This document shows, piece after piece, positions 39,808-56,213 of a DNA stretch of 64,000 nucleotides; position 1 is the first letter of the stretch; each line of letters begins with the position of its first letter. The translations under genes and the position numbers were made by a program. Under the pieces are notes generated by a model that saw only the letters and a list, made by a program, of their open reading frames with translations, was not told the DNA's origin and searched no databases. The DNA comes from Candidatus Levyibacteriota bacterium (GTDB lineage: Bacteria > Patescibacteriota > Microgenomatia > Levybacterales > UBA12049): assembly GCA_049519175.1 (NCBI GenBank), contig JBEKQZ010000002.1, positions 6,782-70,781 on the forward strand, written 5' to 3'.

Positions 39808-42600
39808 ATGAATAAAAAAATAATCTTTCTGTCCTTATTTTTTTTACTGGCCGGCTGCCTTTGGAAAATCCCGCAGGCTAAGGCGTCAACTTTTACCGAC
39901 GGCTACATCCGGCTTGACAATCAAACCGCCAACGCTCCCCTCTCCGGCACAATTTGCGCCCAACCATCGTCCGCCGGCGCCGGAACAGAAGCCAAAATCA
40001 GCGTTGCTTTTCCCAGCGACTTTTCTATTTCGGCCAACACGAGCAACTGGACGACCAACGTCAGTGGTCTTCCTGACGGCGCGACCAGTTGGCCAAGCAT
40101 TGGGAGTTCGGCTACCAGCGTATCCGGTCAAACAGTCACGTTTGCCAGCGGCGATTTAACCGCCGACACACTTTACTGTTTTAATTTTACCGGCAGTTCG
40201 TCCACCACAGGAGCGGCTGGAACCAACAAAACCGGCACACTCACCAGTAAAAATGCTTCCAACGCGACCATTGATCAGACGACTTATTATCTGGCAATCC
40301 TGAATAACAACCAAATTGAGGTAACAGCGACGGTTCCGCCGAATGCCACTTATCTGCCAGTTTCGCTTAAATCGACTAACACCGGCAGCAGTTTTCCGCA
40401 AAATACCGTTTTAAACTACAAAATTAATTACGGGCTTTTAAGTATCGGAGCTTTTCCGTTAACCATTCAGGCACAGTGGAACCAAGGAACAATCGCCGGC
40501 AGTCCGGCACCTTCGGTGGACATCGTCAATTATGTCGTCGGCAGCGCTACTAACGGTTACGGCGGAACCGCACCGGTCGTTGACACGGTAGACGGAACAG
40601 TTACCTGGACTTTTACCTCTTTTCCGGGCAACACCACTAACCAAACCGTCGGTTTCCAACTTGAAACTAATAATTCTTATACCGGAAACAGCTCGGTCAG
40701 TTTTACTGTCGCCGCCAGAGCAATGTCTTTGTCCACCGTGACGCCTGATCAAACTGTCACCCAAGATTATTTGTATAGCGGTTCGCTGGCGCCAACACCG
40801 ACACCAACACAAGCGCCGACGCTGACGCCAACGGTTACCGTTACTCCAACTCCGACGCCAACACTCACACCTCAATCTTTTGCGTTTGGCAACGTCAATG
40901 TTTACGCAGTAACGCAATCCCAAGCGCAAATTCGGGTTGTTACCACCCGTAACGCCACTTCGACGATTACTTACGGCACTTCCGCTTCCAAATTAACCCA
41001 AAGTGTTTCTAGCACGACGCCTTTAACCGACGCTGTGCTGACTTTGCCAAATCTGACGCCGGATACGACTTATTATTTTAAGACCACCGCCACCGACAGC
41101 TACGGAAACTTAATTAAGTCGGATATTTTTACCCTTAAAACCGCTGTTGTCTCCGAAGTGGTGCTCGTTGACCCGCAAAGCGTGATTGTCACCAGTAACA
41201 GTAACGTTTTAGTCAATCCTGAAGCGCAAAAAGCCAGCGGGCAACCACAGAAGATTGCGATTGTTGTTCCTCTCTCAACCGATTTTGAAATCCAATTCTC
41301 GCTGGCCAAGCAAATTCCGGTCAAAAGTATTCAGGCAATTGTCAGAAATAAAAATGTCTTGGGCGCTAATACTTTTTCGGTTCCGGTCGCCGAAGCGGCT
41401 TCAAACTATGTTGATTTGGTCGAAACCCAACCGGGAGTTTATACCGGCAGATTAAAGAGCTTGCCCAGTCCCGGTTTTTACGAAATTTATGCGCGCATCG
41501 TCGATTATAATGGTAATATCTACGAGCAGAAAATTTCGGATTTGACTGTCACTTCCCACTTTATGGTCTACGACAAAAGCAATAATCAAGGAGTCGATAA
41601 CGCTAAAGTTTTGCTTTACCTATATAATCCAATAGCCAAAATCTATGACCTAATTTCTCCACTAATCCTGCCGATTCCAAATCCGGCCTATTCCTTAAGC
41701 GACGGCACGGTGCAAATAGTTTTTTCTCCGGCTAAATATAAAGCTGAAGTCTCCGCCATTGGCTATAAGCCGCAAACGATAGAGTTTGAAATTAATCCCC
41801 AGTCAATTTATTATCCGACTGTCTATCTTCAGCCCGAGCCGTTTAATCTAGTCAATTTTGTGCAATACCTCGGTAAAAACTTTACGGATCTCATCTCCTT
41901 AAACCAGCAATACTTAAGCGAAATTTCCGCTTCGAGCAGACTGTTCGTTGTTTTGGAAAGCCTGACGCTTTTGGTGTTTGTCGGTCTAACCTTTTTCTCT
42001 TTTTCCGCCAGAACTCATATTCCCATTCTTTATTTACCTTACTTTTTCATTCACAAGCTAAGACAGCTTTTCTGGAAAAATAATTCTTTGCTTATCGGCA
42101 AAGTTGTCGACACGGTTACACAAAATCCGATTTCCAGAGCAAGAGTAAACCTTATTGATGCCAAGAAAAATAAATTGCTGGCAGAACTAAAAACCAACCG
42201 CCTGGGTGAATTTTATTATAAAAGCGCTAATTTCGAGCATTTGCAGATTACGGTGACAAAAAAAGGCTTCCTCCCCACTCCGACCATGAACTTTATTAAA
42301 GAAAATTTGCAAAAGATGCCACTCGTTTTAAGCGTCGTTAGGGATGAGTCGTACTTGCGGTCGGTGTCGGAACTTATAATTTTAGTCTTGGAAAATGTGA
42401 TTGGTGCTCTCTTAGAGTTTCTGCTTGTTTTTACGATCATTCTTGAACTCTACTTTATTCCCCCGCTTGGCATTTTGCGGATCTTACCATTCTTGTTTTT
42501 GTCTATTTTGAACGTGACACTTCTGATTTTTTACCTTTATAAACCGCGTCACCTGATTTTGAATGCCCCCTCGATTAAACACGGCTTTACGGCTGCTTAG
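39808..42600 (+). CDS. large secreted/membrane-anchored surface protein (930 aa): paralogous N-terminal domain, Thr/Pro linker, carboxypeptidase-regulatory-like domain, C-terminal TM helices
   Basis: It has a signal peptide. The N-terminal ~130 aa (YIRLDNQTANAPLSGTICAQP...TLYCFNFTGSSSTTGAAGT) are clearly homologous to the N-terminus of the 50100 gene product. The linker is TPTPTQAPTLTPTVTVTPTPTPTLTP. The CarboxypepD_reg-like segment is GKVVDTVTQNPISRARVNLID...LGEFYY. Three or four C-terminal TM segments follow. Confidence 0.7.
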   Translation: MNKKIIFLSLFFLLAGCLWKIPQAKASTFTDGYIRLDNQTANAPLSGTICAQPSSAGAGTEAKISVAFPSDFSISANTSNWTTNVSGLPDGATSWPSIGSSATSVSGQTVTFASGDLTADTLYCFNFTGSSSTTGAAGTNKTGTLTSKNASNATIDQTTYYLAILNNNQIEVTATVPPNATYLPVSLKSTNTGSSFPQNTVLNYKINYGLLSIGAFPLTIQAQWNQGTIAGSPAPSVDIVNYVVGSATNGYGGTAPVVDTVDGTVTWTFTSFPGNTTNQTVGFQLETNNSYTGNSSVSFTVAARAMSLSTVTPDQTVTQDYLYSGSLAPTPTPTQAPTLTPTVTVTPTPTPTLTPQSFAFGNVNVYAVTQSQAQIRVVTTRNATSTITYGTSASKLTQSVSSTTPLTDAVLTLPNLTPDTTYYFKTTATDSYGNLIKSDIFTLKTAVVSEVVLVDPQSVIVTSNSNVLVNPEAQKASGQPQKIAIVVPLSTDFEIQFSLAKQIPVKSIQAIVRNKNVLGANTFSVPVAEAASNYVDLVETQPGVYTGRLKSLPSPGFYEIYARIVDYNGNIYEQKISDLTVTSHFMVYDKSNNQGVDNAKVLLYLYNPIAKIYDLISPLILPIPNPAYSLSDGTVQIVFSPAKYKAEVSAIGYKPQTIEFEINPQSIYYPTVYLQPEPFNLVNFVQYLGKNFTDLISLNQQYLSEISASSRLFVVLESLTLLVFVGLTFFSFSARTHIPILYLPYFFIHKLRQLFWKNNSLLIGKVVDTVTQNPISRARVNLIDAKKNKLLAELKTNRLGEFYYKSANFEHLQITVTKKGFLPTPTMNFIKENLQKMPLVLSVVRDESYLRSVSELIILVLENVIGALLEFLLVFTIILELYFIPPLGILRILPFLFLSILNVTLLIFYLYKPRHLILNAPSIKHGFTAA

Positions 42601-42626
42601 CCGCTTTTGCCTGAGGACCATTGGAG

Positions 42627-43622
42627 TCAGTGATACATTACAATAGCGTCTTTATAGATTTTGTCGGAAATTTGCTCAATGGTTTTTGATAAGTCATTAA
42701 AGTCCGGCCCTTTGGTCATAATACACAACAGATATGGACGCTTTGGGTAATAAATTATGCCGCAGTCATGCAGCTGGTGAATTCCGTTGCCCACTTCTCT
42801 TTCACCAAACTTATGCGCAATTGGGATATTTTTGGGCAAATCATCCACCAATCCCTGTTTAAATTCCGCTTGCGCTAAAAGTTCGAGCGCTTGCTCGGAA
42901 TAATCTTTATTTAAATAAGTGGCATAATATAAAACCCTAAACAGCGTTGAATATTCAGACACGTCCATAAAATCATCAGGAGTCGAATTGGTGGCGGTGG
43001 TAATACCCAAATCAAGCGTTACCTGATTAATCTTGCGGCTATCGATGTTATTTTCCAAAAGCGCCAAGGCTGCGTTATCGGAGCCGATAATCATACTTTC
43101 GATTAGCTGCTCAACCGTATAGGTTTGCCCTAAAACAAGCGGATGGCTCGGCGGATAATTTTGCGCGATTACTCCGGAAGGCTCTGCGCTATATTTTATT
43201 TTTTGCTCAAGAATTGCCGGAGCTTCTTCTGCTTCTTTGTAATAAGCCATCATTACCGGCACTTTTAAGAGACTCGACGGCGCAAAAACATCGTGCTCAT
43301 TAATGCCAAACCACGATCCGTTATTCAAGTCACGGTAATAAACCGACACGCTGGTCACCGAATTATTGGTGGTTAATTGATTAATGTAAGTGCTAATGCT
43401 ACTTTTTAATTTGGACAGTTCTTTGGTATCATAGCTTTCACCCGTATTGCATTCGTACAACGGATTAATGAACTGATAACCGCCGGCGTGGAATTCTGAT
43501 GGAATATTTGCAAGATCAGGAAATTGACCGGGCAGTAAATAGCCGATAAAACCGCCAACCGCTAGTCCGAGGATTAAAAATGCCAGACAAAAATAAAACC
43601 ATTTATTTCGGAGAATAAACAT
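42627..43622 (-). CDS. class A beta-lactamase-fold serine hydrolase, membrane-anchored
   Basis: SxxK (APSSLLK), SDN (GSDNAA), and a KTG-like triad HKFG. N-terminal TM. Confidence 0.55.
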   Translation of the reverse strand: MFILRNKWFYFCLAFLILGLAVGGFIGYLLPGQFPDLANIPSEFHAGGYQFINPLYECNTGESYDTKELSKLKSSISTYINQLTTNNSVTSVSVYYRDLNNGSWFGINEHDVFAPSSLLKVPVMMAYYKEAEEAPAILEQKIKYSAEPSGVIAQNYPPSHPLVLGQTYTVEQLIESMIIGSDNAALALLENNIDSRKINQVTLDLGITTATNSTPDDFMDVSEYSTLFRVLYYATYLNKDYSEQALELLAQAEFKQGLVDDLPKNIPIAHKFGEREVGNGIHQLHDCGIIYYPKRPYLLCIMTKGPDFNDLSKTIEQISDKIYKDAIVMYH

Positions 43623-43663
43623 AAATTAAATAGTATCGTAAAGAAAAAACTATTGCAAGAGGC

Positions 43664-46600
43664 TTATTGCGTTGGAGTTGGCGTGATGTTTAGTTGATTA
43701 ATGATTGATTGAAACGCCGCCGAGTCGGTCGCGGTTGGAATTGGCGTGACGTCCAAATTAAGCCCCGAAGTTTGCGCATCCCGCACTGATAATGCTACCC
43801 AGGAGAAACTAATATCTTCCGGCGCCGGTTTATTTAGCTTGATGACAAAACCTGTCGTGGTTCTTTGCGTAACCACGTAGGAAATATTATTATTAAGAAT
43901 TGTATCTTCCAGAGTTTGCTGCGTGGCGCTGTCCCCTGTTTTGTCCATAGCAATGCTGGCGGTGACCACCGGCGTGTTCACATATTCCTGATTGAAATTA
44001 ACTTGCACGCTGTCCAAGCCCTGTTGGATAACCGCAAATCCGGCGGTATCATTATTAAAGGTCGGCGTGGAATCAAAACGGACATTGCCTTTGAAAACCA
44101 CGTCCTGAATAAAGTAAGCAAACTGCGAAACCAAAAGGTTTTGGGTGGTAAGATTATTTAGAACATTCAACGCTCCCTGAATAAGGCCGTTGCCCCCAAC
44201 ATTTAGGTCGGCCGAAATAGTGGCTAAGCCGTCGACATTAAGACTGGTAAGAGTAAGCACTGTTGGAAGCTGTGCCGAACCGGTGGCCAGTTCCGCGCTC
44301 CCCGTCGCGTCCGCCAAAACCGCCGTGTTGTCATTAAGCGGTAGGGTCTGATCGGTGGGAATTTCCAATCCCCCGACTATTTCGTCGGCAATTAGCTTTT
44401 CGACGTGCAAAGTTCCGCTGATGGTGGCATCGCCGGTGTTCAAGCTATTTGAAGTTAATTGTCCGCTGAAACTGGCGTTCCCCTGATTATCAATGGTAGC
44501 AACCGCCAAACCCGAAGCTGAATTGCTATTCAAAACGGACAGCTGATTGCTATTTAGCTTTAAAGCGACATTTGCATTATCGTCTATTGGAACAATCAGA
44601 CTCGTCTGCAAAGTATTAACTGTTGCTAGCGGCGAAATTATAGTTTGACCGTTAGAAAGTGCAAATTGTGAATTCGAAATAGCGCTGGTAACAATACCGG
44701 TAATATAGTCTCTGACATTTTGTCCATTGATGGTGATATTTTCGCTGGCAACGCTTAAAGCATTAGTGGTAATTTGCCCGGCGTTGACAAATCCTACCCG
44801 CAAATTGGCAATCGCCGCGTCGGAAAATTCTCCGACTCGGGCAATCGGATTTCCTAAAGCATCATTTAGCGTAAAGTAATGCGGAATTGTGTAGTTGGTG
44901 TTGCTCGCGGTCTGGTCAACCAGATTCAAATTTCCGCTTGAAGTTAGATAAACCTGCGGATCATACCAAGTGGGATTGACATAAACCTCTATTTCTCCGC
45001 TGGTTCCAGCGTCAACCGCCATTCCGATTACCGGTCCGGCTTTAGTGGCTTTGACGGCAACTCCGGATGTGCTTGAATAAGTTAGATAGTCTCCTGGATT
45101 GATAGCGCCGTTTTGCGAATTTATCTCGGTCCTTAGCTGTCCTAGTAAACCGACGGTTACATAATCAGGGTCATCTTCGTGAGAATCATTTCCTAAAACA
45201 ATGTAAGAATTAGAAATAACGCCGAGTATTTGAGTATTATTGTTGTCGCATTTTATAACTCCACCATTTGTATCAATGCAAACCAAATCTCCCGGATTCA
45301 ACACGTCATTTGCATTTGCTTTTTTAAACCATTCGGCATAATCCCCGCCCGTTGAGCTAAGAGTTACACTGCTTCCGGTGCCCAGAATTTTTCCGATTAT
45401 TGTTCCGTTTCCGGTGGCAAAGTTAATATATCTGTCTGCAGAACCGGGTAATGCTCCGTTATTTGTCCCTAGTCTTAGCGATAAAGCAGTATGACAAGTT
45501 GAGTTGGTACAAGCGGCGTTGCCGGTATTTGGAAAGGCATTCCAAATTTGTGCCGAAGCCGTTGAAGAGCTGGAGCCAATCACCTGAAATTTAATGTTTC
45601 CCGAAGTGGATGCTGAAGCACCAAGCAGTAATTGGTTAGCACCTATGGATACTGTAGATGCCAATCCCGCGAAATTCAAAGTTCCGGTTAATCCGGTATT
45701 GAATAACGCTAACGTTCCTGAGGTTTGGTTTGTAGCAAGGGTTGTACCATTTAGCGTTATTGTTGCCGAAGAAGCTCCTAGAGTTAAGGCTGTTGCCGCC
45801 CCACCATAAGTTATTGTTGTCGGAGTCCCAAATTCCGTCAGCGTTGTAGCAGTTGTGTTTAGTGTATAGCTTGCCCCGGTATTCGGATTTAAACTCAAAG
45901 AGGTTGACGAAGTTAAAGTAGATAGCGAATTAGCCGTTATCGACGCACCGCTCGCGGTAATATTTCCGGTGTTACCTACCGTAAACATAGTCCAGCCGGA
46001 AGCGGAAGCGGTGAACAAATCGCCTACGCCATTATTATTAGCAACCAAAGCGGCAAAGGAAGTTCTACCCGAGACCGAAGCCGCCGGAACGGTTCCGTTC
46101 ATTGCCCGCACATCTAATGTGCTAGCGGGAGTAGTGGTGCCGATACCGACATAACCGGTATTATCCCGGACGGTCATGGCCGTTCCCCAAGTATTGAGTC
46201 CGGATTTATAACCAAAGTTTAAAGTGCCGTTGCCCGGTTCAATGGTGGAGCTGGTAGCTCCTCCAAGGACTAGTGTTGCCGACAAAGAGGCACTGCCGGT
46301 GGGAGCTCCCATGTTTAAGGTAGTAGCAGCTCCACCATAAGTTATTGTTGTCGGAGTCCCAAATTCCGTCAGCGTTGTAGCAGTTGTGTTTAGTGTATAG
46401 CTTGCCCCGGTATTCGGATTTAAACTCAAAGAGGTTGACGAAGTTAAAGTAGATAGCGAATTAGCCGTTATCGACGCACCGCTCATAGTTAGAGTGCTGG
46501 CTATGGTTAGCGCTCCGCCTGAACTCAAAGTATTACTTGAAGAAAAGAATTGGATGTTGCCGGTTGAACCGGAGTTAAGGGTTAAAGTATTTGAGCCGGT

Positions 46601-47806
46601 GTTGGCGAATGACGGATTTGTCCCAAGGTTAATTGTTGCAGCATTAAGATTGATTACTCCTCCGGTGCCATTGTTTGGGGAAAGTGTAATATTGCCGGTG
46701 GTATTACCACCAATGGCTAAGAGTTGATTGTTGGTAGATTGAATTGCACTGGCTGCAAATGCACCGATAGTCAAGCTTCCCGCAACGGAAGCGCTGCCGC
46801 CGTAGCCGTTATTGGGCATTAATACCAATTGCCCGCTGAACGAAGCCTGGGTTTGGTGAGTTGAAGAAGCAAGCCCGGTAAAAGCAAAAACTGCTGACGC
46901 GGTTGATTGTCCACCAATTAAAAGATCCGCGGTTGAATTAATTGGGGTTATATATCCGCCACCGGTGGTTCCATAACCATTAACTAAATTCCAATAGTTG
47001 GTTCCAGTTCCGCCGGTTCCGCAACTTCCCCAAGCTGCAGTAGCGCCACCGACTAGACAATGTGAAGAATCGGAGGTTGTCCCTCCAAGTGAAATTCCTC
47101 CGGACGCAAGAGTAATTCCAGCAAAAGACGGATTAGAACTTAAAACTAAAGTTGTGCCTGTTCCGGTCGTGCTGTTTCCCAATGCTGTTACGGTTCCCGA
47201 GGTTGGCAAAGTAAGCGTGGTTGTTCCTGAAGTTGAAAACGTCAAATTTTGTGTACCCAGATCAACCGTAATTGGGCTTGTCCCGCTCGTTCCAATTCTA
47301 AGCGTTGCAGAAGTAGAACCGGCGGTGCCCGTAGCCGAGTCTTGAACCGTTAAGCCCGCTACCTGCTGGGCGTTAAAGGCAAACGGCACCGCTGTCATTT
47401 GAATTCTCGGCGTCATTTCCGAATCGCTTACCGGTGAAGTAACTTGAATGCCCAAATAAAGTCCATCCCAGTTAAAATTAAAGCTCGTTGGAATTGATGT
47501 TACTGAACCCAACGCCACCCGGAAAATTCCGTCGGTGGTAGTTACTGTTTGCGTTTCCGTCCACAGCGCTGTTCCGCCGCTGGAAACGTTATACAGGCTA
47601 AACACCACTGTGTAGCTTCCGTTGGAAACGTTTAATCCGGTGCTTCCGGCCACGTTGCTGACTAACCTACCTTGAAAGTTGATGGTGCGGTTAATCCCTG
47701 TTGCAGCTAAAACCGGCTTTGTGAAAACCGCAGAGAAGCTTAGCGAAAAAGAGGCTATTGCTAAAATGACTAAAAGTTGTTTAAAATTGAAATGGACAGT
47801 CAACAT
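43664..47806 (-). CDS. giant secreted Gly/Thr/Ser-rich repeat protein (1380 aa); putative adhesin or fibre-like surface protein
   Basis: It has a signal peptide and long low-complexity beta-rich repeats. A ~177-aa unit is duplicated internally. A central domain (GDYAEWF...PGDLVCID) is reminiscent of fibre/tail-fibre-like proteins, but that comparison is weak. Confidence 0.7.
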   Translation of the reverse strand: MLTVHFNFKQLLVILAIASFSLSFSAVFTKPVLAATGINRTINFQGRLVSNVAGSTGLNVSNGSYTVVFSLYNVSSGGTALWTETQTVTTTDGIFRVALGSVTSIPTSFNFNWDGLYLGIQVTSPVSDSEMTPRIQMTAVPFAFNAQQVAGLTVQDSATGTAGSTSATLRIGTSGTSPITVDLGTQNLTFSTSGTTTLTLPTSGTVTALGNSTTGTGTTLVLSSNPSFAGITLASGGISLGGTTSDSSHCLVGGATAAWGSCGTGGTGTNYWNLVNGYGTTGGGYITPINSTADLLIGGQSTASAVFAFTGLASSTHQTQASFSGQLVLMPNNGYGGSASVAGSLTIGAFAASAIQSTNNQLLAIGGNTTGNITLSPNNGTGGVINLNAATINLGTNPSFANTGSNTLTLNSGSTGNIQFFSSSNTLSSGGALTIASTLTMSGASITANSLSTLTSSTSLSLNPNTGASYTLNTTATTLTEFGTPTTITYGGAATTLNMGAPTGSASLSATLVLGGATSSTIEPGNGTLNFGYKSGLNTWGTAMTVRDNTGYVGIGTTTPASTLDVRAMNGTVPAASVSGRTSFAALVANNNGVGDLFTASASGWTMFTVGNTGNITASGASITANSLSTLTSSTSLSLNPNTGASYTLNTTATTLTEFGTPTTITYGGAATALTLGASSATITLNGTTLATNQTSGTLALFNTGLTGTLNFAGLASTVSIGANQLLLGASASTSGNIKFQVIGSSSSTASAQIWNAFPNTGNAACTNSTCHTALSLRLGTNNGALPGSADRYINFATGNGTIIGKILGTGSSVTLSSTGGDYAEWFKKANANDVLNPGDLVCIDTNGGVIKCDNNNTQILGVISNSYIVLGNDSHEDDPDYVTVGLLGQLRTEINSQNGAINPGDYLTYSSTSGVAVKATKAGPVIGMAVDAGTSGEIEVYVNPTWYDPQVYLTSSGNLNLVDQTASNTNYTIPHYFTLNDALGNPIARVGEFSDAAIANLRVGFVNAGQITTNALSVASENITINGQNVRDYITGIVTSAISNSQFALSNGQTIISPLATVNTLQTSLIVPIDDNANVALKLNSNQLSVLNSNSASGLAVATIDNQGNASFSGQLTSNSLNTGDATISGTLHVEKLIADEIVGGLEIPTDQTLPLNDNTAVLADATGSAELATGSAQLPTVLTLTSLNVDGLATISADLNVGGNGLIQGALNVLNNLTTQNLLVSQFAYFIQDVVFKGNVRFDSTPTFNNDTAGFAVIQQGLDSVQVNFNQEYVNTPVVTASIAMDKTGDSATQQTLEDTILNNNISYVVTQRTTTGFVIKLNKPAPEDISFSWVALSVRDAQTSGLNLDVTPIPTATDSAAFQSIINQLNITPTPTQ
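45800..45953. repeat. 154-bp perfect internal direct repeat, copy 1, inside the giant gene
   Basis: It is identical to 46331-46484. The flanks are diverged but alignable, so this is a 531-bp (177-codon) in-frame tandem duplication. Confidence 0.9.
46331..46484. repeat. 154-bp perfect internal direct repeat, copy 2
   Basis: See copy 1. Confidence 0.9.
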
Positions 47807-47864
47807 TTAATTAATATTACTACGTAATATTAATTACACCAAGTATACAGCCACGGGTCAAGTC

Positions 47865-47895
47865 TTGACAAAGCTTGTATACTTGTGCATATAAT
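47865..47895 (+). promoter_or_regulatory. promoter candidate (TTGACA ... TATAAT, spacer ~19)
   Basis: TTGACAaagcttgtatacttgtgcaTATAAT lies upstream of 47913. The spacer is long, so confidence is low. Confidence 0.3.
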
Positions 47896-48191: not shown

Positions 48192-48193
48192 GA

Positions 48194-48285
48194 GGGGTGG
48201 TGCGATTGGAAGGGCTCCCGACAGCGCGCAAGCCAGTGAGTCGTGAGTGAGCACTGGCGGGAGGGAAAAATCGCGACAGGACCCC
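48194..48285 (+). ncRNA. structured repeat family 1, copy B
   Basis: GGGGUGGUGCGAUUGGAAGGGCUCCCGACAGCGCGCAAGCCAGUGAGUCGUGAGUGAGCACUGGCGGGAGGGAAAAAUCGCGACAGGACCCC. Four nested helices: P1 GGGGU/ACCCC, P2 GCGAUU/AAUCGC, P3 CUCCCG/CGGGAG, P4 CCAGUG/CACUGG. Confidence 0.6.
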
Positions 48286-48302
48286 ACCAAAGGGAATTAT
48301 TT

Positions 48303-48722
48303 ATGATTAGTAAGAAAGTTTACATTGAACCAAGCGGATTTTTTGCTTTTATTGACAGAGCCAATCCTAAGTATGAGCAAGCCGCGGCCTATTTTCGCTA
48401 TTTTGCGCAGGAAGGATACGCACTTTTCACAGATTACCAAACCATTACTGAAAGTTATAACCATATTTACCGGGAGATCAGCCCATCGTTGGCCAAAGAT
48501 TTTTTGCGCACGGTTTTTTTAAGCGACATCAACATTATCTATCCGGAAGAACGAGATATTAAGGCGGCTTTAAAAACGTTGGTGAACTTTCAATCGACAG
48601 AATTAACTTTCTCGAAAGCAATTAAAGCGGTTTTAGCCAACCGCAGAGGTATCGGGCAGGTTTTTACTTTTGAATATTTACATCCGTTGTTTGGCCAGAA
48701 CACATTTTATTTGCCAATCTAA
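48303..48722 (+). CDS. hypothetical protein, possible degenerate PIN-like domain (139 aa)
   Basis: The track ORF starts at 48243 inside the repeat, so the likely start is the Met at 48303 (MISKKVYIEPSGFFAFID...). Acidic residues are spaced like a PIN domain, but the first Asp is replaced by Glu. The call is weak. Confidence 0.4.
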   Translation: MISKKVYIEPSGFFAFIDRANPKYEQAAAYFRYFAQEGYALFTDYQTITESYNHIYREISPSLAKDFLRTVFLSDINIIYPEERDIKAALKTLVNFQSTELTFSKAIKAVLANRRGIGQVFTFEYLHPLFGQNTFYLPI

Positions 48723-48740
48723 AACAAGGATTAAGGATTA

Positions 48741-50036
48741 ATGATTAAAGAATTAAGAAAAATAACAAAAGGAGGCAATTCACTTTTAAACGAATCGAAA
48801 GTCGTCAAGATTAACGTTGATTTTATGTCTAAATTGCTAAAAAGACTTTCGTTAAGCGAGCAAAGGCTAGGTAATTCTTACCAAGAACTGAAGCGAGCGA
48901 CGTTTGAAAAGTGTGATTGCCGACTGTTGTTGAAAAGATTTTCGTTAGCAACGATATTATTTTCTATAGCAATTTTGAGCCTATTTTTTGCACCACGGGC
49001 GCTTGCCGGACCGACCAGCACCACCTACCAAGTGGTTGACTATGGTTTTGGCGCCGGCGGAATTGCTACTACTTCGGGCGCCAGCAACAAATATATGCTA
49101 CAAGGAATTGCCGGAGAATTGGAATTTGCCAGTCCGAGCTCTTCTAACTATATGGCTTGGCCGGGTTTAACTTATACCGAACAACCGGCTGTCCCGTCAG
49201 CGCCGACTTTTACCAACCCTTCCAACTACTATAACAAACTGCATATTACTATAAATCAAGGCAGTGAACTATCTGATACTGTATACGCCATTTCTATCTC
49301 AACTGATAATTTTGCTAGCAACATTAAATATGTTCAAGCCGACGAAACTGTCGCGTCGGTGGCAGTTTGGCAGTCTTACGGAACATCCGGCGGCTCCCCA
49401 ACTGCCTGGCACGGTTCCGACGGAATTGATATTATTGGTTTAACTCCCGGCACTACTTATTACGCCAGAATAGTTGCCGGACGAGGAACTTTTACGCAAG
49501 GCGTTCCCGGTCCGACGGTTTCGGCGGCCACTGTTAATCCAAAATTAACTTACTCTTTAACCACTACCCGTTTTAGCGCTCCACCTTATGTGGTTGTCAT
49601 TAATAATATTGACCCCGGCGGCGCGGTTAAAACTTCCGACGACCAAATTACCGCCAACATTTCCACCAACGGCGCTAATGGCGGATCAATTTTGGTTTCC
49701 AGCGCCAACGGAGCATTGGTTAGCACCAGCGTTCCGGGAAATCCGATTACCAGCGCCACCAACAATTTAGATAGCGTTTCACAAGGATATGGCGCACAAG
49801 GAGTAAGCGTTTCGCAAAGTTCCGGCGGACCACTGGCGCTAGTTTCACCATACAATACTACTACCGGCAATAATGTGGGAATTCTTGATACCAATAAACG
49901 GGTTTTTGCCAGCTCGACCGTTCCTGTTACCAACGGTTCGGCAACTTTTGTTTTAAAAGCTAAAGTCGCCGCCGGCTCCAGTCCGGCAACCGACTACACT
50001 GATAAATTAATTATTTTGGCCAACGGCGCATTTTAG
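48741..50036 (+). CDS. secreted surface protein, paralogue family A (C-terminal motif ...PATDYTDKLIILANGAF*)
   Basis: The signal-peptide-like segment is at aa ~66-88, so the start may be the downstream TTG at ~48927. An FN3-like strand is TPGTTYYARIVAGRG. The C-terminal 17 aa are nearly identical to the C-terminus of the next gene. Confidence 0.65.
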   Translation: MIKELRKITKGGNSLLNESKVVKINVDFMSKLLKRLSLSEQRLGNSYQELKRATFEKCDCRLLLKRFSLATILFSIAILSLFFAPRALAGPTSTTYQVVDYGFGAGGIATTSGASNKYMLQGIAGELEFASPSSSNYMAWPGLTYTEQPAVPSAPTFTNPSNYYNKLHITINQGSELSDTVYAISISTDNFASNIKYVQADETVASVAVWQSYGTSGGSPTAWHGSDGIDIIGLTPGTTYYARIVAGRGTFTQGVPGPTVSAATVNPKLTYSLTTTRFSAPPYVVVINNIDPGGAVKTSDDQITANISTNGANGGSILVSSANGALVSTSVPGNPITSATNNLDSVSQGYGAQGVSVSQSSGGPLALVSPYNTTTGNNVGILDTNKRVFASSTVPVTNGSATFVLKAKVAAGSSPATDYTDKLIILANGAF

Positions 50037-50099
50037 ATAAAATGGCCTATTGACAAAAGTTTTAAAAAATGTTTTGCTTAATTATAGCAATAACTATTT

Positions 50100-51224
50100 A
50101 TGGATTTATCCAAATTCAGAATAAATAAAGATCCTAAAGCTGCCTTAAGTATTCTTCTGCAGTTGTCTCTCCTTCTAGTCAGTGTTTCCTACGCTTTACT
50201 TTATCCGCCAAAAGCTAACGCGGCGACATTTGTCACGCTTAGACTAGACCGGCAATATGCCAGCGTAGCACTAGCCGGAGTAGCTTGTATTAAACCAACC
50301 GCCGCCAGTCAATCCGACACCAAAGTGATTATTACTTTTCCTTCAACTTTTACGCTTGATACAACAGTCGCCAATTGGTCGGTTGATACCACTGCCACCA
50401 ACTTACCTAGCACCACTACCGGCGATGCTTTTACCGCTACCGCTTGGACGGGCATTTCTGCCAAACCAATGCTGGTTGACAATTCCACCAAAGCCGCCAT
50501 TTTTACCAGCACCCAATTAACTTCATCTTCTAACTATTATTGTTTCCATTTTAACGGCGGCGCCAGTTCGAATGTCGGAGCGGCGGGCAATGACGAATAT
50601 GGATATATCCAAACCTGGAAATCACCTGGAGTAAATGTCGAAAACGATCAGTATGCGGTTTCTATTGTCAGCGGCACCAACGGTGAGCAAATCGAAATTA
50701 AAGCCACTGTCTCTGCCGCCTTTACTTTTTCTTTGTCCGGCGGAGCCGGAGCTGGAGCCACCGCTGCTGCATCATTACCGCTTGGTATTATTTCGGCCAG
50801 CACCGTCACGACAGCTCCGTATACTGCAACAGCCACTATTTCGACCAACGGCACGAACGGGTTCTTAGCTTGGATTAAAGACGGCAACGCTGCCTTATAT
50901 TCAAACACCACCGGGCAAAATATACCTACTGTAGCTTACAATGGCGGTTCGCCAACGACGCTTACAAACGGCAGTAACGGTTATGGTGTTTGGGCAGCCA
51001 CCGGAACAAATTCTCCAACTATTGCTACGATGTATAATACCGGGCAAACAGGAACATCAGTTGGCGCAATTAGTGATACTGCTTTTTCGCTGATTGCCAG
51101 TAAAACCGGCGCTTATTCGGGAGAGACATTTCTTTTTGGCGTCCGTGCTGCGCCTGCCTACACAATTACGCCTGCCACCGACTATACCGACGTTTTAACC
51201 GTCGTTGCATCCGGCTCTTTCTAA
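50100..51224 (+). CDS. secreted surface protein, paralogue family A (C-terminal ...PATDYTDVLTVVASGSF*); its N-domain is homologous to that of the 39808 product
   Basis: It has a signal peptide, the shared N-terminal domain, and the shared C-terminal beta-strand-like motif ending in Phe. Confidence 0.7.
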   Translation: MDLSKFRINKDPKAALSILLQLSLLLVSVSYALLYPPKANAATFVTLRLDRQYASVALAGVACIKPTAASQSDTKVIITFPSTFTLDTTVANWSVDTTATNLPSTTTGDAFTATAWTGISAKPMLVDNSTKAAIFTSTQLTSSSNYYCFHFNGGASSNVGAAGNDEYGYIQTWKSPGVNVENDQYAVSIVSGTNGEQIEIKATVSAAFTFSLSGGAGAGATAAASLPLGIISASTVTTAPYTATATISTNGTNGFLAWIKDGNAALYSNTTGQNIPTVAYNGGSPTTLTNGSNGYGVWAATGTNSPTIATMYNTGQTGTSVGAISDTAFSLIASKTGAYSGETFLFGVRAAPAYTITPATDYTDVLTVVASGSF

Positions 51225-52272
51225 CATGAACCATGGCAAAAAATTATTGCTTCTGCCAATACTCTTCGTTTTGGCGATTTTATTTTTGCCGGTAAAAACT
51301 TTTGCCCAAACCCCCGGCGGTTATGATGTCACAGTCTCCCCCATTTTCTTTGATTTATCTACCACTCCGGGGGGTAATGTGTCTGGCACCATTAAGATTA
51401 GAAACAATACCGCCTATCCTTTACCGCTTAAATTGGGAGTGCAAAGATTAACCGGAGATTTAAGTGGTAATTACAGTTTAAAAGCCGACAAGAATGATGA
51501 AACACTGTCCTGGGTTAGTTTCTCCCAGCCCACCTTTGTCGCCAACCCTCTGGAGTGGACCCAAATTCCCTTCACCATCAATGTTCCCAAAGATGTAGCT
51601 TATGGTTACTACTGGACCATTACCTTTGCCCAGGATACTACCAATCCTCTCTTCAAAAGCGGAGTCAGTTTAACCGGCGCCGCCGGAGTGCCAATCCTGT
51701 TGAACGTACTAAAGCCCGGGGAGAAAGCCGACGCCAAAATCACTCAATTTAGCGTCGGGCAATTTGTCAATGAATATTTGCCGATTAACTTTACGGTTAA
51801 AATTGAAAATTTAGGTAACATCCACGTTCAGCCCCACGGCAGCATTTTCATTAGTGACGGCCGTAACAAAGATTTGGCGGTTTTGGATGTCAATCCGGGG
51901 CTTGGCAACGTTATTCCGCAGTCTGCCCGGATTTTCAACGCTTCCTGGGACGACGGATTTTTAGAAATGGAGCCGGTCACGCAGTTTGGTCAGCCAAAAC
52001 TGGATAAAAACGGCAAACCGTTGGAGACTTTACAGATTAACTGGGATAAATTAACCGAGTTTAGAATCGGTCGCTACACCGCCAATCTGGTGATGGTTTA
52101 TGACAATGGCAAAGTCGATGTCCCGCTGGAATCAACCATTACTTTTTGGGTTTTGCCTTGGAAAGCGATGGGCGTAATTCTGATTTCGCTAATCGTGATT
52201 TTCCTGGTCGGCAGATTCTTGATTAGAACTTACATTAAACGCGAAATCGCCAAAAGAACCAGAGCCGCTTAG
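51205..52272 (+). CDS. secreted protein with a C-terminal TM anchor and basic tail, paralogue family B (DUF916/DUF3324-like architecture)
   Basis: It has a signal peptide and two beta-rich domains. The C-terminus VLPWKAMGVILISLIVIFLVGRFLIRTYIKREIAKRTRAA is a TM helix plus a Lys/Arg tail. The architecture is shared with 52945-53877. Confidence 0.7.
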   Translation: MHPALSNMNHGKKLLLLPILFVLAILFLPVKTFAQTPGGYDVTVSPIFFDLSTTPGGNVSGTIKIRNNTAYPLPLKLGVQRLTGDLSGNYSLKADKNDETLSWVSFSQPTFVANPLEWTQIPFTINVPKDVAYGYYWTITFAQDTTNPLFKSGVSLTGAAGVPILLNVLKPGEKADAKITQFSVGQFVNEYLPINFTVKIENLGNIHVQPHGSIFISDGRNKDLAVLDVNPGLGNVIPQSARIFNASWDDGFLEMEPVTQFGQPKLDKNGKPLETLQINWDKLTEFRIGRYTANLVMVYDNGKVDVPLESTITFWVLPWKAMGVILISLIVIFLVGRFLIRTYIKREIAKRTRAA

Positions 52273-52868
52273 TCCGCAAATTTAATTGTGGGAATTAATA
52301 AATTGAATAAATCGTTTTCCGCCTGCTGGTCCGGACTTTCGAAAACAAAAGTATAGATTTTTCCGTTGAGCAAAAAGAAAACCGTTTTTTCGTAGCCGGC
52401 TGTCATATCATATTTTGAGAACTCTAAACCCTGCTGGTTATCGACGGAGACTGTAGTTTGCGTGTAAGTGGTCGTATCTTCCCACCTTAAGCGTACACCG
52501 GAATAATCACTTAGTGTCTGCGCGCTGGGATAAGCTATCACTTCACTAAAAAAATGCGTGTGCGAATCGCTTAAATCAAAACCAAAATGTTCCAAATCAT
52601 TATACTGATACGGCTGTCCATTAGTGTATAAAATGAACGCTTTTGCCGCCTTCGGATAAAGAAACGACACGTATTTACCCTGGTGCAAGACGTTTCCGGT
52701 AATTACCGGCGCCGCTTTCAGCACCACTTGCCTGCCCAAAATATTTTCTAAAGCCTGTTGCTTTTGGGCCGCGGTTAACGTTGCCTGCGGGCGGTTAAGA
52801 ATAAGAAAAGCAGCTACAAACAGCCCGAGAATCACTAGGAGAAACACTGATAATATTATCTTCTTCAT
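52269..52868 (-). CDS. hypothetical membrane-anchored protein
   Basis: The track ORF extends to 52895, but the likely start is MKKIILSVFLLVILGLFVAAF at 52868. N-terminal TM. Confidence 0.5.
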   Translation of the reverse strand: MKKIILSVFLLVILGLFVAAFLILNRPQATLTAAQKQQALENILGRQVVLKAAPVITGNVLHQGKYVSFLYPKAAKAFILYTNGQPYQYNDLEHFGFDLSDSHTHFFSEVIAYPSAQTLSDYSGVRLRWEDTTTYTQTTVSVDNQQGLEFSKYDMTAGYEKTVFFLLNGKIYTFVFESPDQQAENDLFNLLIPTIKFAD

Positions 52869-52891
52869 GAATTTATGATACCATAAAATAG

Positions 52892-52975
52892 GCAAATTTC
52901 TAATTCTTAATTTTTAATTTCTAAACAAATCCAAATGTCAAAAAATGAAAATTAAAAATCGCAAATTAAAAATCG
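52892..52975. repeat. AT-rich intergenic repeat family 3 copy (includes a tandem AAATTAAAAATCGC x2)
   Basis: Matches 18642-18748. Confidence 0.45.
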
Positions 52976-53877
52976 CAGTATTCTTAATACTTACTACTGG
53001 CTACTTAGTACTTGCTACTGGCAAAGCGCTTGCCCAAACACAAAAAGGGATTACGGTTGAGCCCTCGATTATGCACATTGATCTTTCCACCGACCAGCCG
53101 GAATATGATTTAACCTATATCAACAGCACCAATTACGCCGTCGGGCTAACCATAAGCGTCCAGGATTTTTCGGCGCTTAGCGACACTTATCAAATTGATT
53201 ATCTTTCGCCTGCCGATGCCGCCAACTACAAATATTCGCTGTCATCTTGGCTGACATTTGAAAATAAAAATTTTGATTTAAATCCCGGCGAAAAAAAGAG
53301 CATCAAAGTTTACATCGATAAAACCAGAATCACCAAAGGCGGCCATTACGCCGCTATTTTGGCCGAAATCGGCGCCCCCAACGGCGGACAAAATTCTAAC
53401 GTCAAAGCGGTTCTTTCCAGCTTGTTGTTTGTGCGTGCCGACACCGGACAGGAAATTGAAGACGGCAAAATCGTCACTTTTGAGCCCAACCGCGACTGGC
53501 TGGAATTTCCGGACAGCTTTATCGTGCGTTTCCAAAACAACGGCAACGTCCACGTCATTCCTTATGGCTTGATTAAAATTTACGACCCGCTGAATAATCT
53601 TGTTACCCAGGGCACTTTTAATATGGACTCTTTGGACGCCTTGCCAGAAAGTATCCGCCGCTACGATACCGATATTGAAGTTTACCAAAAAGTGCTTCTG
53701 CCGGGAACTTACACGGCCAAAATTGCTCTGCATTTTGGCGACACCAACCGAAAAACTTCCGCCACGGTCCAGTTTTATTCCGAAGGAATGTTTGATTTCC
53801 CCAAAATCGGCCTGGGACTGATTATAATTTTGTTAGTGAGCCTTTACCTCCGCAAAAAACTGTCCAAAAAATCTTAA
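52945..53877 (+). CDS. secreted protein with a C-terminal TM anchor, paralogue family B
   Basis: It has a signal peptide. The C-terminus IGLGLIIILLVSLYLRKKLSKKS is a TM helix with a basic tail. The two-domain beta architecture matches the 51205 product. Confidence 0.7.
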   Translation: MKIKNRKLKIAVFLILTTGYLVLATGKALAQTQKGITVEPSIMHIDLSTDQPEYDLTYINSTNYAVGLTISVQDFSALSDTYQIDYLSPADAANYKYSLSSWLTFENKNFDLNPGEKKSIKVYIDKTRITKGGHYAAILAEIGAPNGGQNSNVKAVLSSLLFVRADTGQEIEDGKIVTFEPNRDWLEFPDSFIVRFQNNGNVHVIPYGLIKIYDPLNNLVTQGTFNMDSLDALPESIRRYDTDIEVYQKVLLPGTYTAKIALHFGDTNRKTSATVQFYSEGMFDFPKIGLGLIIILLVSLYLRKKLSKKS

Positions 53878-53885
53878 ACAAGCGC

Positions 53886-53909
53886 AGTGAGCTTGCAAAA
53901 TTTTCGCTG
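53886..53909 (+). repeat. partial copy (24 nt) of repeat family 2, abutting family 1 copy C
   Basis: agtgagcttgcaaaattttcgctg matches the 5' arm of the 157-nt elements at 56248 and 61727. Confidence 0.5.
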
Positions 53910-53913
53910 ATAA

Positions 53914-54004
53914 GGGGTGGCAGGAGTGGAAAGGCTCCCGACAGCGCGCAGATCAGTGAGTCGTGAATGAGCACTGGCGGGAGGGAAACTCCTGACAGGA
54001 CCCC
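53914..54004 (+). ncRNA. structured repeat family 1, copy C
   Basis: GGGGUGGCAGGAGUGGAAAGGCUCCCGACAGCGCGCAGAUCAGUGAGUCGUGAAUGAGCACUGGCGGGAGGGAAACUCCUGACAGGACCCC. P2 is CAGGAG/CUCCUG, a full compensatory change against copy B. Confidence 0.6.
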
Positions 54005-54068
54005 GAAATGATAACAAATTCCGTGAAAAGTTGCATTTCACAAAACTATATGAGTATGATATAGTTGG

Positions 54069-56213
54069 ATGAAAAATCACTGCCTTAGGTTGGCGCTTTT
54101 TGTAATTGTTGGGACAACTTTACTGTCTGTATTCTCAGCAAAAGCGCTGGCCAAAGATTCTTACGGCTTTACTTGGACCATTGCCGCTACTCCTTCCGCC
54201 GTAGTCGTTGACTCTGCTAACAATATTTATTACGCCGGCTATTTGGCGAGTGGCTCCGCCACGCAAATGAATCCCAATTTTAATCTTGGCGCCGGACAGA
54301 TAAGCGATTTAAAAACTGCCACTACCGGCGCTATCTTTTTGACCAAGATGAATCCGGATTTAACCTATAACACCAGCTATATTATTGAAGCCGACAATCC
54401 ATACGTTGTGAGCGGTCAAAACATTTCCGTAACGCTGACCAAAATTGCCACCGACAGCGCCAACAATGTCTATTTGCTGGGTACTTTTACCGGCAATGTC
54501 AATTTTAATCCGACCGGCAGCCTGGATTTCCATTCTTCAAAAGGACAAACTTGGTCCTTTTTGACGGAAATTACAGCCGGCGGACTTTATGGCGGCACTT
54601 ATTTGTGGGGAAACGGCAATATCACCGTCCGCGACCTGACTATTGATAAAGATAATAATCTCTTTTTGCTTGGGCAGGCCGTAAATAGTAGCGGCGGTCC
54701 GATTACGGTTAATTTAAATCCTGTGGGAGGCATAGATAATAAAACTGTCAATGCCGGCGACACCATGGGTTTCTACACTGAACTTGTGGCGGGAACTCCC
54801 AATGCTTACGGTTATTCGAGAACCTTTAAGAATACCAGCTCACAATATCTCGAAGTGGATCATATCGCTACGTCTTCGGCCGGCAAAATTTTTCTTTACG
54901 GTGTTTTTGCCGACACCATGAATTTTAACGGTTCCGGCGGAACCGACAATAAAACCTCTGACAATAGCTCCGATGATCTATATTTAAGTGAATACGATGC
55001 CAGCGGAAATTATGTCTTAACCTACATAATTGGAGGCACCGGTGATGAATCCGCCGAGAGTCTGGCGATAGATAATAACAGTAACGTTTATTATAGTGGC
55101 GGATTTAACAATACGGTCAATTTTGACCCGACCGGCGGAACCGATAGCCAAACCGCTACTCTTCCCGGCCAGCGCTTTTTGTCAAAATTAAACAGCGACG
55201 GAAGTTATGGTTGGACGCTTATTTGGAATTCAAATACTCTGGACATTAACAAAATTGCTTTTGACCAAAACAATTTGATGTATTTGGTTGGAATAAGCGC
55301 CGGAACCATTAACTATGACCCGATCGGCGCCACCGACAACCAAACCGGCTTTGGCGGCAACGATGCTTTTATGACGGTGATAAATCCGGACAAAACTTAT
55401 GACTACACTTACGTTTGGGGCGGAACCGATGACGAAAAAGCGCTGGACGGCTCTTTCGATTCTTTAAATAACTTTTATATTGCCGGCTCGACCCAAAGTC
55501 TAAGCGTCAATTTTGATCCGACCGGCCAAACCGATTTTCCGGTCACTTTTACGGGCGGCGAAAACGGTTATATCACTCAGTTTTCATCCACCCAACTGGT
55601 AGTAGCTCCTCCGACGAATAATTCCAACAACGCAGCGTCAGGACCGGGCCCGCAAGGCTTTAGCTGCACCAATCATGTTCCCGTGGCGCCGCAGATTTTC
55701 CAAATCTGGGCCACCCAAACTACGGCGACCATTTATTTTGTCCCCAGCGCCGACCCGCAGAATTCTTACACCATTAGCTACGGTCTCTATAGTGACGCAG
55801 GAATGTATAACGTTACCTTTAGCTGGTCTGATAAAAGCGGCGCGATTCCCTACACCATAAACGCACTTAGCGCCGGCACGCCCTATTACTTTAAAGTGCG
55901 CGCCAACAATGGTTGTATGCCGGGAGAATGGTCAAACACTCTAGCTCTTAGCACTGCCTATTCTGTTAATGGAGGAAGTAATGCTTATGCTCCAAGCGCT
56001 GTTTTGAGTAGTAACACCGCTGCCGGCGCCACAGGCGGCAGTTGCTCGCAATATACGGTTTTGCCTGGTGATTCGTTCTGGTCAATTGCCCAAAAACTTT
56101 TGGGCGCCGGCACCAAATACCTGCAGATTTGGAATGCTAATAAAACCGCTTTCCCCAGTCTCAATTATTCCTCTATTATCCGTTCGGGCTGGACTCTCTC
56201 CGTGGGCTGCTGA
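54069..56213 (+). CDS. secreted SBBP beta-propeller-repeat protein with an FN3-like domain and a C-terminal LysM domain
   Basis: It has a signal peptide. At least 6 repeats fit the pattern N.VY..G.F.GNVNFNPTG (SBBP-like). The FN3-like segment is PQIFQIWATQTTATIYF...YYFKVRANN. The C-terminal LysM is YTVLPGDSFWSIAQKLLG...WTLSV. Confidence 0.7.
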   Translation: MKNHCLRLALFVIVGTTLLSVFSAKALAKDSYGFTWTIAATPSAVVVDSANNIYYAGYLASGSATQMNPNFNLGAGQISDLKTATTGAIFLTKMNPDLTYNTSYIIEADNPYVVSGQNISVTLTKIATDSANNVYLLGTFTGNVNFNPTGSLDFHSSKGQTWSFLTEITAGGLYGGTYLWGNGNITVRDLTIDKDNNLFLLGQAVNSSGGPITVNLNPVGGIDNKTVNAGDTMGFYTELVAGTPNAYGYSRTFKNTSSQYLEVDHIATSSAGKIFLYGVFADTMNFNGSGGTDNKTSDNSSDDLYLSEYDASGNYVLTYIIGGTGDESAESLAIDNNSNVYYSGGFNNTVNFDPTGGTDSQTATLPGQRFLSKLNSDGSYGWTLIWNSNTLDINKIAFDQNNLMYLVGISAGTINYDPIGATDNQTGFGGNDAFMTVINPDKTYDYTYVWGGTDDEKALDGSFDSLNNFYIAGSTQSLSVNFDPTGQTDFPVTFTGGENGYITQFSSTQLVVAPPTNNSNNAASGPGPQGFSCTNHVPVAPQIFQIWATQTTATIYFVPSADPQNSYTISYGLYSDAGMYNVTFSWSDKSGAIPYTINALSAGTPYYFKVRANNGCMPGEWSNTLALSTAYSVNGGSNAYAPSAVLSSNTAAGATGGSCSQYTVLPGDSFWSIAQKLLGAGTKYLQIWNANKTAFPSLNYSSIIRSGWTLSVGC

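Follow-up and report, generated by a model that had tools for sequence, protein, structure and literature searches.

A gene cluster of a Candidatus Levyibacteriota bacterium pairs WxLIP homologues with proteins that end in a shared, unannotated domain

Introduction

The Csc/WxL system (Siezen 2006; Hassan & Williamson 2022/2023) is the closest described relative of the genes reported here, and the two papers dedicated to WxL describe it as essentially confined to Lactobacillales and Bacillales. In the Firmicutes a WxL cluster is defined by at least one WxLIP together with two WxL proteins (within four genes), often with an LPXTG protein (PMC10599100), and the WxLIP gene comes with genes for two further proteins, one small and one large, both with a WxL domain at the C-terminus. 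In its published architecture WxLIP consists of a signal peptide, two domains, a C-terminal transmembrane helix and a basic tail, over a length of about 337–365 aa (PMC10599100). As cited in PMC9772566, the DUF916 protein of E. faecium binds both WxL proteins experimentally (Galloway-Pena 2015), and WxL has been reported to bind peptidoglycan (Brinster 2007). AlphaFold2 (AF2) predicts that a hairpin of WxLIP completes the WxL sandwich (PMC10599100). Here we describe an island of surface-protein genes in a stretch of 64,000 nt from a Candidatus Levyibacteriota bacterium (GCA_049519175.1, contig JBEKQZ010000002.1, positions 6,782 to 70,781), hereafter the window. The core of the island, at about 47.9–53.9 kb together with a divergent giant gene, is probably a Patescibacterial counterpart of the Csc/WxL cluster, in which a different C-terminal domain, here named Cdom, takes the place of WxL.

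Patescibacteria are ultrasmall and probably episymbiotic, and their surface attachment and host recognition are little understood beyond type IV pili. A full-text search of the literature returned no paper linking Patescibacteria with WxL or DUF916. NCBI automatically names some proteins of the candidate phyla radiation (CPR) 'DUF916 domain-containing', and the WxLIP homology is thus not new in itself.

Results

Two proteins of the island end in the same domain

Twelve open reading frames (ORFs) at 38.8–56.2 kb were translated and compared all-versus-all by blastp. Three pairs were similar (39808/50100, 48741/50100 and 51205/52945, named by the first nucleotide of the listed ORF), and the remaining pairs were unrelated. 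These are the three relationships that a first-pass annotation, made from the letters alone, had drawn by eye; all of them are significant, and the suggestion of paralogy thus does not founder on a lack of pairwise similarity. The pair 48741/50100, which we call X1 and X2, is 36% identical over the last 132 aa (E = 3.6e-9), and the profiles of the two families align over 162 columns with an hhalign probability of 99.8% (E = 6e-28). The near-identical 17-aa C-termini that the annotation had noticed in these proteins of 431 and 374 aa are therefore genuine, and since the similarity reaches far beyond them, they are the end, i.e., the last strand, of a domain of about 170 aa, Cdom. The tail A.DY[TSA]D.[LI]T..[AG].G.F-COOH is present in 70/71 and 119/120 members of the X1 and X2 families, and in six frames of the window no ORF other than X1 and X2 ends in it. 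The terminal strand reads DYTDxLxxxAxGxF, and a Trp is kept only in the X2-type members, within 'NGWxxW'.

X1 and X2 are 100% identical to the NCBI hypothetical proteins ABSE17_03225 and ABSE17_03230, both from a Candidatus Levyibacteriota metagenome-assembled genome. X1 matches the Cdom hidden Markov model (HMM) with E = 3e-56 and has at least 551 homologues, none with a Pfam domain. We also observed a motif in the mature N-terminus of X1 (residues ~88–150), AgP.S.n.ql.dYGFG.GG…S.n…qG..GE…SS.ny…pGLtYT, which is conserved across the 551 or more homologues and has no Pfam match.

Cdom matched no model in Pfam (2025) or NCBIfam (2026). A 173-position profile searched against 1.84 billion representatives, clustered at 50% identity, matched 1173 representative proteins at E ≤ 1e-3, of which 687 at E ≤ 1e-10. 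Among the best 150 of these 1173 matches, Cdom ends within 6 residues of the protein C-terminus in every case (150/150), and the final residue is Phe in 138 and Tyr in 12. A transmembrane-like segment after the N-terminal one was predicted in a single protein out of 116 full-length Cdom proteins. X1 and X2 themselves carry N-terminal signal-like segments and, taken together with the absence of later transmembrane segments in the wider family, this makes it most likely that they are exported and soluble.

The proteins that end in Cdom vary widely in length. The shortest, at about 200 aa, consist of a signal peptide and Cdom alone, a common form has about 360 aa, and large forms have 750–2564 aa. 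Six of nine large forms scanned have Pfam matches and three have none (the 2564-aa form lies outside the scan). The passengers of the large forms comprise Laminin_G_3 with DUF2341, five TIG repeats, NHL/SBBP propellers and FG-GAP, and there are sub-threshold matches to fn3 and Ig-like domains. No relatives of Cdom were found among IMG/VR viral contigs, on which ground a phage origin of the domain was rejected; likewise no sequence relatives were found in the PDB, and no carbohydrate-binding family matched.

An AF2 model of full-length X2 has a mean predicted local distance difference test score (pLDDT) of 84.8, and a model of Cdom alone, computed from 113 sequences, is a complete and very confident monomer (pLDDT 94.3, predicted TM-score (pTM) 0.87). 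The ten best Foldseek matches to the latter were all CfaB or CsuA/B (probability 0.75–0.99), and the solved structures nearest to it are mostly fibre subunits that are completed by a donor strand. These matches have E-values from 5e-3 to 0.1, none at or below 1e-3, and TM-scores of 0.36–0.54, which is the generic Ig-like range. The first-pass annotation had likened the terminal strand to donor-strand motifs; the likeness finds weak support in the predicted fold, which faintly resembles that of donor-strand-complemented pilins, a likeness of fold that is no evidence of homology. Four other readings of the tail, as an outer-membrane β-signal, a PEP-CTERM, an LPXTG or a signal of the C-terminal domain (CTD) type of the type IX secretion system (T9SS), were rejected because Cdom is a soluble sandwich with no transmembrane segment after it and because the cluster has no matching machinery.

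The two membrane-anchored paralogues are homologues of WxLIP

The proteins encoded at 51205 and 52945 are 27% identical over 246 aa (E = 1.4e-10). Their hydrophobic segments lie at residues 14–32 and 322–340 (51205; 348/355 aa) and at residues 8–26 and 282–300 (52945; 310 aa), and both end in a Lys/Arg-rich tail, so that the paralogy and the order signal peptide, two domains, transmembrane helix and basic tail were seen correctly in the first-pass annotation. The short paralogue is smaller than the lengths published for WxLIP. In Pfam, the 51205 protein gives a sub-threshold match to WxLIP_PGBD (DUF916; E = 0.083, 13.4 bits against a cut-off of 27.3) and the 52945 protein gives none, and PF11797 (DUF3324) was not matched by hmmscan in these homologues. 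Three homologues of 51205 (54–67% identity) reach the Pfam gathering score with 30–31 bits. Relatives of its family number at least 198; PF06030 is carried by about 40% of the matches listed, and one of them bears the name 'DUF916 domain-containing protein [Patescibacteria group bacterium]'.

As a Firmicutes reference we used a degenerate DNA pattern for the published DUF916 motif NQIDKxxxYFDLK on GTDB genomes. It matched 68 loci, from genera such as Enterococcus, Listeria, Companilactobacillus and Bacillus, from which 49 WxL and 55 WxLIP proteins were extracted. A sample of these proteins was verified with Pfam (WxL, E = 1e-22 to 1e-69; WxLIP_PGBD, ~1e-40; WxLIP_HBD, ~1e-51). Against the reference WxLIP proteins the 51205 family aligns with an hhalign probability of 97.4% (E = 1.4e-11, 244 columns) and the 52945 family with 96.8% (E = 3e-10, 237 columns), and the long and short families align to each other with 99.7%. 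DUF3324 (HBD) is recognisable at the profile level only, where the alignments cover Firmicutes columns 70–330 of 393 (long) and 43–302 (short). The NQIDK part of the motif is absent from both proteins, which keep only its core, as VSPIFFDLS and PSIMHIDLS. Judged by these profile alignments, both paralogues are genuine WxLIP (DUF916/DUF3324) homologues, as the first reading had surmised. No sequence relatives of WxL or WxLIP were found in the PDB. As a separate observation, NCBI attributes one close WxLIP homologue (P0153) to 'Candidatus Sulfotelmatobacter sp.' (Acidobacteriota), which is probably a mis-binned Patescibacterial contig rather than a sign of a wider range.

The same reference separates Cdom from WxL. 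The WxL family PF13731 has no match among 34 members of the Cdom family even at E ≤ 10, the two Trp-x-Leu motifs are absent from X1 and X2, and the Cdom profiles align to the 49 Firmicutes WxL proteins with an hhalign probability below 1%, both locally and globally. The sole part that aligns is the last strand (16 columns, at..aAtDYtDTLTVV against t.K...YtttLTW), with a non-significant E of 0.12. We therefore rejected the identification of Cdom as a WxL domain.

The arrangement is conserved among related loci

Ten related loci (designated by L numbers) were compared with the window, eleven loci in all, with ORFs classified by HMMs built from the window families; the taxonomic attribution of these loci and families rests on a few NCBI protein names. 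In 9/11 loci at least two Cdom proteins are encoded directly beside at least one long WxLIP and one short WxLIP, which bears out the earlier proposal of a cell-surface module. Each of the nine clusters has one X1-type Cdom protein (218, ~360, 749, 1300 or 1464 aa long) and one or more X2-type proteins, in which a second domain (Bn, see below) directly precedes Cdom, besides one to three long WxLIPs and exactly one short WxLIP. Large forms occupy the X1 position in L077 (1300 aa, with Laminin_G_3 and DUF2341) and L079 (749 aa, no Pfam match). The orthologues in the related loci are only 22–55% identical to the window proteins while the gene order is kept, and the arrangement is thus old.

Further genes accompany the clusters less regularly. 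A gene for a small membrane protein, M, has an orthologue by family HMM in seven of the nine (the window, L001, L002, L072, L073, L074 and L079), usually on the opposite strand, and neither Pfam nor the PDB has a match for it. The divergent giant gene occurs in six loci (the window, L001, L002, L072, L073 and L079), and an HTH_17 gene followed by one for a protein of 139–141 aa lies upstream in four (the window, L001, L002 and L073).

The sortase, PEGA, MreB, WecG and GalT genes, on the other hand, show synteny in no locus but that of the closest relative, L001. The SBBP-fn3-LysM gene has only a partial counterpart there, and the other loci lack one. No sortase was found among the called genes in the 5–10 kb flanks of the related loci. 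The sortase of the window lies 5.7 kb past the end of the island and 8 kb past the last WxLIP gene, and no island ORF has an LPXTG-like motif with a hydrophobic stretch and a basic tail. Pfam confirms the identity of the SBBP-fn3-LysM, PEGA and sortase genes as the first-pass annotation had given it, but their inclusion in the apparatus is not supported: these three and the MreB, WecG and GalT genes are neighbours and not conserved parts.

The domain Bn links X2 to a 930-aa membrane protein

The 930-aa protein encoded at 39808 (residues 22–176) and X2 (residues 37–204) are 33% identical over 171 aa (E = 1e-15), and the HMM of the N-terminal domain, Bn, built from the X2 family matches residues 24–169 of the former (nt 39877–40314; E = 5e-42), in agreement with the N-domain proposed earlier as common to the two. 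The 930-aa protein carries Bn and no Cdom. Since Bn is found both on a Cdom protein (X2) and on a protein with a transmembrane anchor, the distribution fits Cdom as an alternative anchoring module. The transmembrane segments of the 930-aa protein are predicted at residues 712–730, 856–874 and 895–913, and its β-sandwich domains (FN3-like and CarboxypepD_reg/transthyretin-like) seem to lie between transmembrane helices, an unusual architecture. At the corresponding position in L001 there is a 919-aa protein with CarboxypepD_reg, of which only the last 349 nt are inside the locus.

Gene boundaries and companion genes

The coordinates of the features are collected in Table 1. As judged from homologues, the listed ORF starts of 48741, 51205 and 48243 are probably too far upstream. 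Homologues place the start of the long WxLIP at ATG 51226, where the listed ORF begins with TTG at 51205, that of the 139-aa protein at 48303 (listed at 48243) and that of X1 about 55–75 codons downstream of 48741. The X2 stop (51224) and the WxLIP ATG (51226) are only 1 nt apart, which suggests translational coupling, and the M gene is convergent with the long WxLIP gene with an overlap of 4 nt. A scan for promoters and terminators gave no signal above the shuffled expectation. The GC content of the island (0.41–0.47) is marginally higher than elsewhere in the window (0.37–0.47, mostly 0.40–0.45).

The 139-aa protein has no match in Pfam or the PDB, and its orthologues in L001, L002 and L073 are 56–72% identical; the HTH_17 protein and this 139–141-aa protein, encoded ahead of X1, may form a dedicated regulator pair. 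The lectin match of the giant protein is weak (H_lectin, E = 0.0036). Both its N-terminal and its C-terminal region are conserved in the giants of 1700–2750 aa at the same position in L001, L002, L072 and L073, the four loci covered by the sequence comparison; the giant of L079 is assigned by position alone.

We further observed that the giant gene of the window contains a 181-nt direct repeat (45773–45953 and 46304–46484, 95% identical, 531 nt apart), which encodes a duplicated segment of about 55 aa (…SGASITANSLSTLTSSTSLSLNPNTGASYTLNTTATTLTEFGTPTTITYGGAAT…) of the 1380-aa protein. A homologue of the Beta-lactamase2-family gene adjoins the giant gene in L002 as well. In a related genome, small genes with 23S_rRNA_IVP/bAvd Pfam hits flank the giant gene (L002, 780–1184, - strand, and 7826–8194, + strand; L003, 365–733); the window showed no gene of this kind. 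Diversity-generating retroelements have bAvd as their accessory protein, and this hints that the giant surface protein of that related genome may be a target of such an element.

Table 1. Positions in the window of the cluster genes, their domains and neighbouring genes.
Feature	Position (nt)	Strand	Description
930-aa membrane protein	39808..42600	+	Signal peptide, Bn, FN3-like, CarboxypepD_reg-like, three C-terminal transmembrane segments
Beta-lactamase2-family membrane-anchored protein	42627-43622	-	E = 9e-38; between 930-aa protein and giant gene
Giant Gly/Thr-rich secreted protein, 1380 aa	43664..47806	-	Divergent from cluster; weak match to H-type lectin at the C-terminus
HTH_17 DNA-binding protein, 92 aa	47913..48191	+	Heads the + strand run; Pfam E = 1.5e-10
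Conserved 139-141-aa protein	48303..48722	+	Between HTH gene and X1; no hydrophobic segment
X1	48741..50036	+	Predicted secreted; N-terminal region, FN3-like region, C-terminal Cdom (by Cdom HMM)
X1 Cdom (residues 262-431)	49524-50033	+	C-terminus ...PATDYTDKLIILANGAF*
X2	50100..51224	+	Predicted secreted; two domains, Bn and Cdom; C-terminus ...PATDYTDVLTVVASGSF*
X2 Bn (residues 36-199)	50205-50696	+	
X2 Cdom (residues 202-374)	50703-51221	+	
Long WxLIP homologue	51226..52272	+	Signal peptide, DUF916-like, DUF3324-like, transmembrane helix (ORF residues 322-340), Lys/Arg tail
M, ~200 aa	52269..52868	-	Small membrane protein: N-terminal transmembrane helix and extracytoplasmic domain without recognised fold
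Short WxLIP paralogue, 310 aa	52945..53877	+	Signal peptide, two beta domains, transmembrane helix 282-300, basic tail
SBBP beta-propeller-fn3-LysM secreted protein	54069..56213	+	Pfam; peripheral neighbour
PEGA gene	60415		Pfam
Sortase gene	61895-62602		Pfam

Discussion

We propose, with a probability that we put at about 0.6, that the island core represents the Csc/WxL cluster in Patescibacteria, in a form in which Cdom replaces WxL and is docked on WxLIP for surface display. X1 and X2 would be Sec-exported, soluble proteins, each ending in the β-sandwich Cdom, and the long and short WxLIP would be type-I proteins of the cytoplasmic membrane, with the C-terminal helix as anchor and the basic tail in the cytoplasm. 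Cdom would dock non-covalently on the DUF916-like domain of WxLIP, probably via β-strand complementation, and docking would thereby retain the secreted protein at the cell surface with its N-terminal domains facing outward. The domains displayed in this way would be Bn in X2 and lectin or propeller passengers at the X1 position in other genomes. M and the giant fibrous protein are conserved companions of the cluster. The contact between Cdom and WxLIP, the complementation by a strand, the membrane topology and a function in attachment are what we infer from these homologies and the gene context.

Several lines of evidence favour the docking of Cdom on WxLIP. [quoted passage not shown] Other points weigh on the other side. 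The contact is deduced rather than seen directly, and since Cdom has no detectable sequence relationship to WxL, its functional equivalence is argued from context. In two loci (L076 and L078), TIG(+NHL)-Bn-Cdom proteins are encoded alone, with no WxLIP within 8 kb, and it is in such unclustered Bn-Cdom proteins that the TIG repeats are found. Finally, the numbers of Cdom and WxLIP genes in a cluster are not always equal.

X1 and X2 could instead be subunits of a donor-strand-exchange fibre, a pilus-like structure on a monoderm cell, in which the Ig fold of the next subunit is completed by Cdom's first strand or by a strand from the neighbouring subunit, the acceptor groove is lined by the conserved C-terminal strand and its free aromatic carboxylate, the WxLIPs serve as membrane-tethered chaperones or basal anchors and the large Cdom proteins are tip adhesins. 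The identity of all ten best Foldseek matches speaks for such a fibre, as does the connector of X2, which is Gly/Ala-rich and of variable length among homologues, and passengers followed by a pilin-like acceptor domain match two-domain tip adhesins such as FimH. The scores of those matches do not rise above the Ig-like background, however, and the monomer modelled with high confidence (pTM 0.87) is already complete. Where the connector is short, the first strand lies in an ordinary hairpin, and the cluster has no usher, SipW/TapA-like or other known fibre-assembly gene. Nor does the pattern of two Cdom and two WxLIP genes favour a fibre: in place of a single, abundant and small major subunit, each cluster encodes two distinct Cdom proteins of ~360 aa. 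We consider a fibre, the foremost of the alternatives, unlikely. Somewhat less improbable in our eyes, and offered as a tentative idea, is that WxLIP is an ancient membrane-tethered strand donor of monoderm cells with a PapD-like function, and that Cdom is a pilin-like acceptor whose last strand and aromatic carboxylate form the docking site.

We give appreciably less credence to a model in which Cdom binds the cell wall or S-layer (peptidoglycan or another envelope polymer) directly and the WxLIPs are co-regulated with a separate function. Peptidoglycan binding, reported by Brinster (2007) as cited in PMC9772566, was the first proposal for WxL, and the constantly C-terminal position of Cdom on secreted proteins and the orphan Cdom proteins without an adjacent WxLIP would agree with it. 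The two Cdom types, however, stay adjacent to the two WxLIP types down to about 35–40% identity, which argues for a physical partnership, and the searches described above tied Cdom to no carbohydrate-binding family. The same persistent adjacency makes it very improbable that the island is a mere assemblage of surface-protein paralogues that evolve fast and share no machinery, the tail being only a structural feature of a common fold. Paralogues of surface proteins do often cluster by tandem duplication, and the linkage seen here is one of genes. Nevertheless, X1/X2 and the WxLIPs are unrelated to each other (hhalign probability below 1%), their order is kept across loci at 22–55% identity, and the same WxLIP family is paired with two C-terminal-domain proteins in the Firmicutes.

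The locus extends the WxLIP module well past the gut Firmicutes in which it was described, and because a non-WxL domain holds the place of WxL, the domain that partners WxLIP seems exchangeable. This and the pilin-like fold lead to a strand-complementation hypothesis for the little-understood WxL systems too. Were the strand-donor model to be true, CPR bacteria, and by extension Firmicutes with WxL, would display adhesins or short fibres without sortase or usher, and the repertoire with which many Patescibacteria recognise their hosts would consist of lectin and propeller proteins tagged with Cdom. The locus defines a large, unannotated family of C-terminal domains and links proteins that bear lectin, TIG, NHL and FG-GAP domains to WxLIP homologues, and it thereby offers a testable route to the surface adhesin repertoire of the group. 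By inference the cluster could be a dedicated attachment apparatus for an episymbiotic lifestyle. What is new is the Cdom family, its pairing with two types of WxLIP in a conserved cluster, the proposed replacement of WxL and a fold that distantly recalls pilins.

Among known systems, the CTD of the T9SS in Bacteroidota is likewise a compact C-terminal β-sandwich carried by many unrelated secreted passengers, short and very long. The logic is analogous only: here there are no T9SS genes, there is no outer membrane, and no sign of Cdom cleavage is seen. Donor-strand fibres (CfaB and CsuA/B, which are alternate or archaic chaperone-usher pilins; archaeal bundling pilins and those of the TasA type; and the TLP-1 pond fibril, PDB 9ikk) share with Cdom a conserved C-terminal β-strand whose pattern alternates, with an aromatic residue as the last one or close to it, and passenger domains followed by a pilin-like domain recall tip adhesins. 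They differ in that Cdom has no detected sequence relationship to them and that the host here lacks an outer membrane, and neither chaperone-usher components (PapD-like plus usher) nor SipW/TapA were found among the island ORFs with Pfam or NCBIfam.

The likeness to Csc/WxL goes further. Both have homologous WxLIP proteins with a signal peptide, two Ig-like domains, a transmembrane helix and a basic tail; both have two secreted partners per cluster with a common, strictly C-terminal domain of about 170–180 aa, in small (domain only) and large (adhesin passengers) forms, and both have their genes tightly adjacent. Held against the published definition, the window has two full-length WxLIP proteins and, where two WxL-domain proteins would be expected, two Cdom proteins. 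As X1 and X2 hold the position of the two WxL proteins, we regard the island core as a variant of a described system, and in this we depart from the first-pass annotation, which had called it undescribed. The variant has features of its own: the island lacks an LPXTG (CscD-like) protein, and the cluster adds a small membrane protein, usually a divergent giant, and two types of WxLIP, long and short. Its partner domain is not WxL but Cdom, with the ending DYxDxxTxxxxGxF-COOH and an invariant terminal aromatic residue, and it occurs in a Patescibacterium, outside the Firmicutes to which descriptions of WxL are almost entirely confined.

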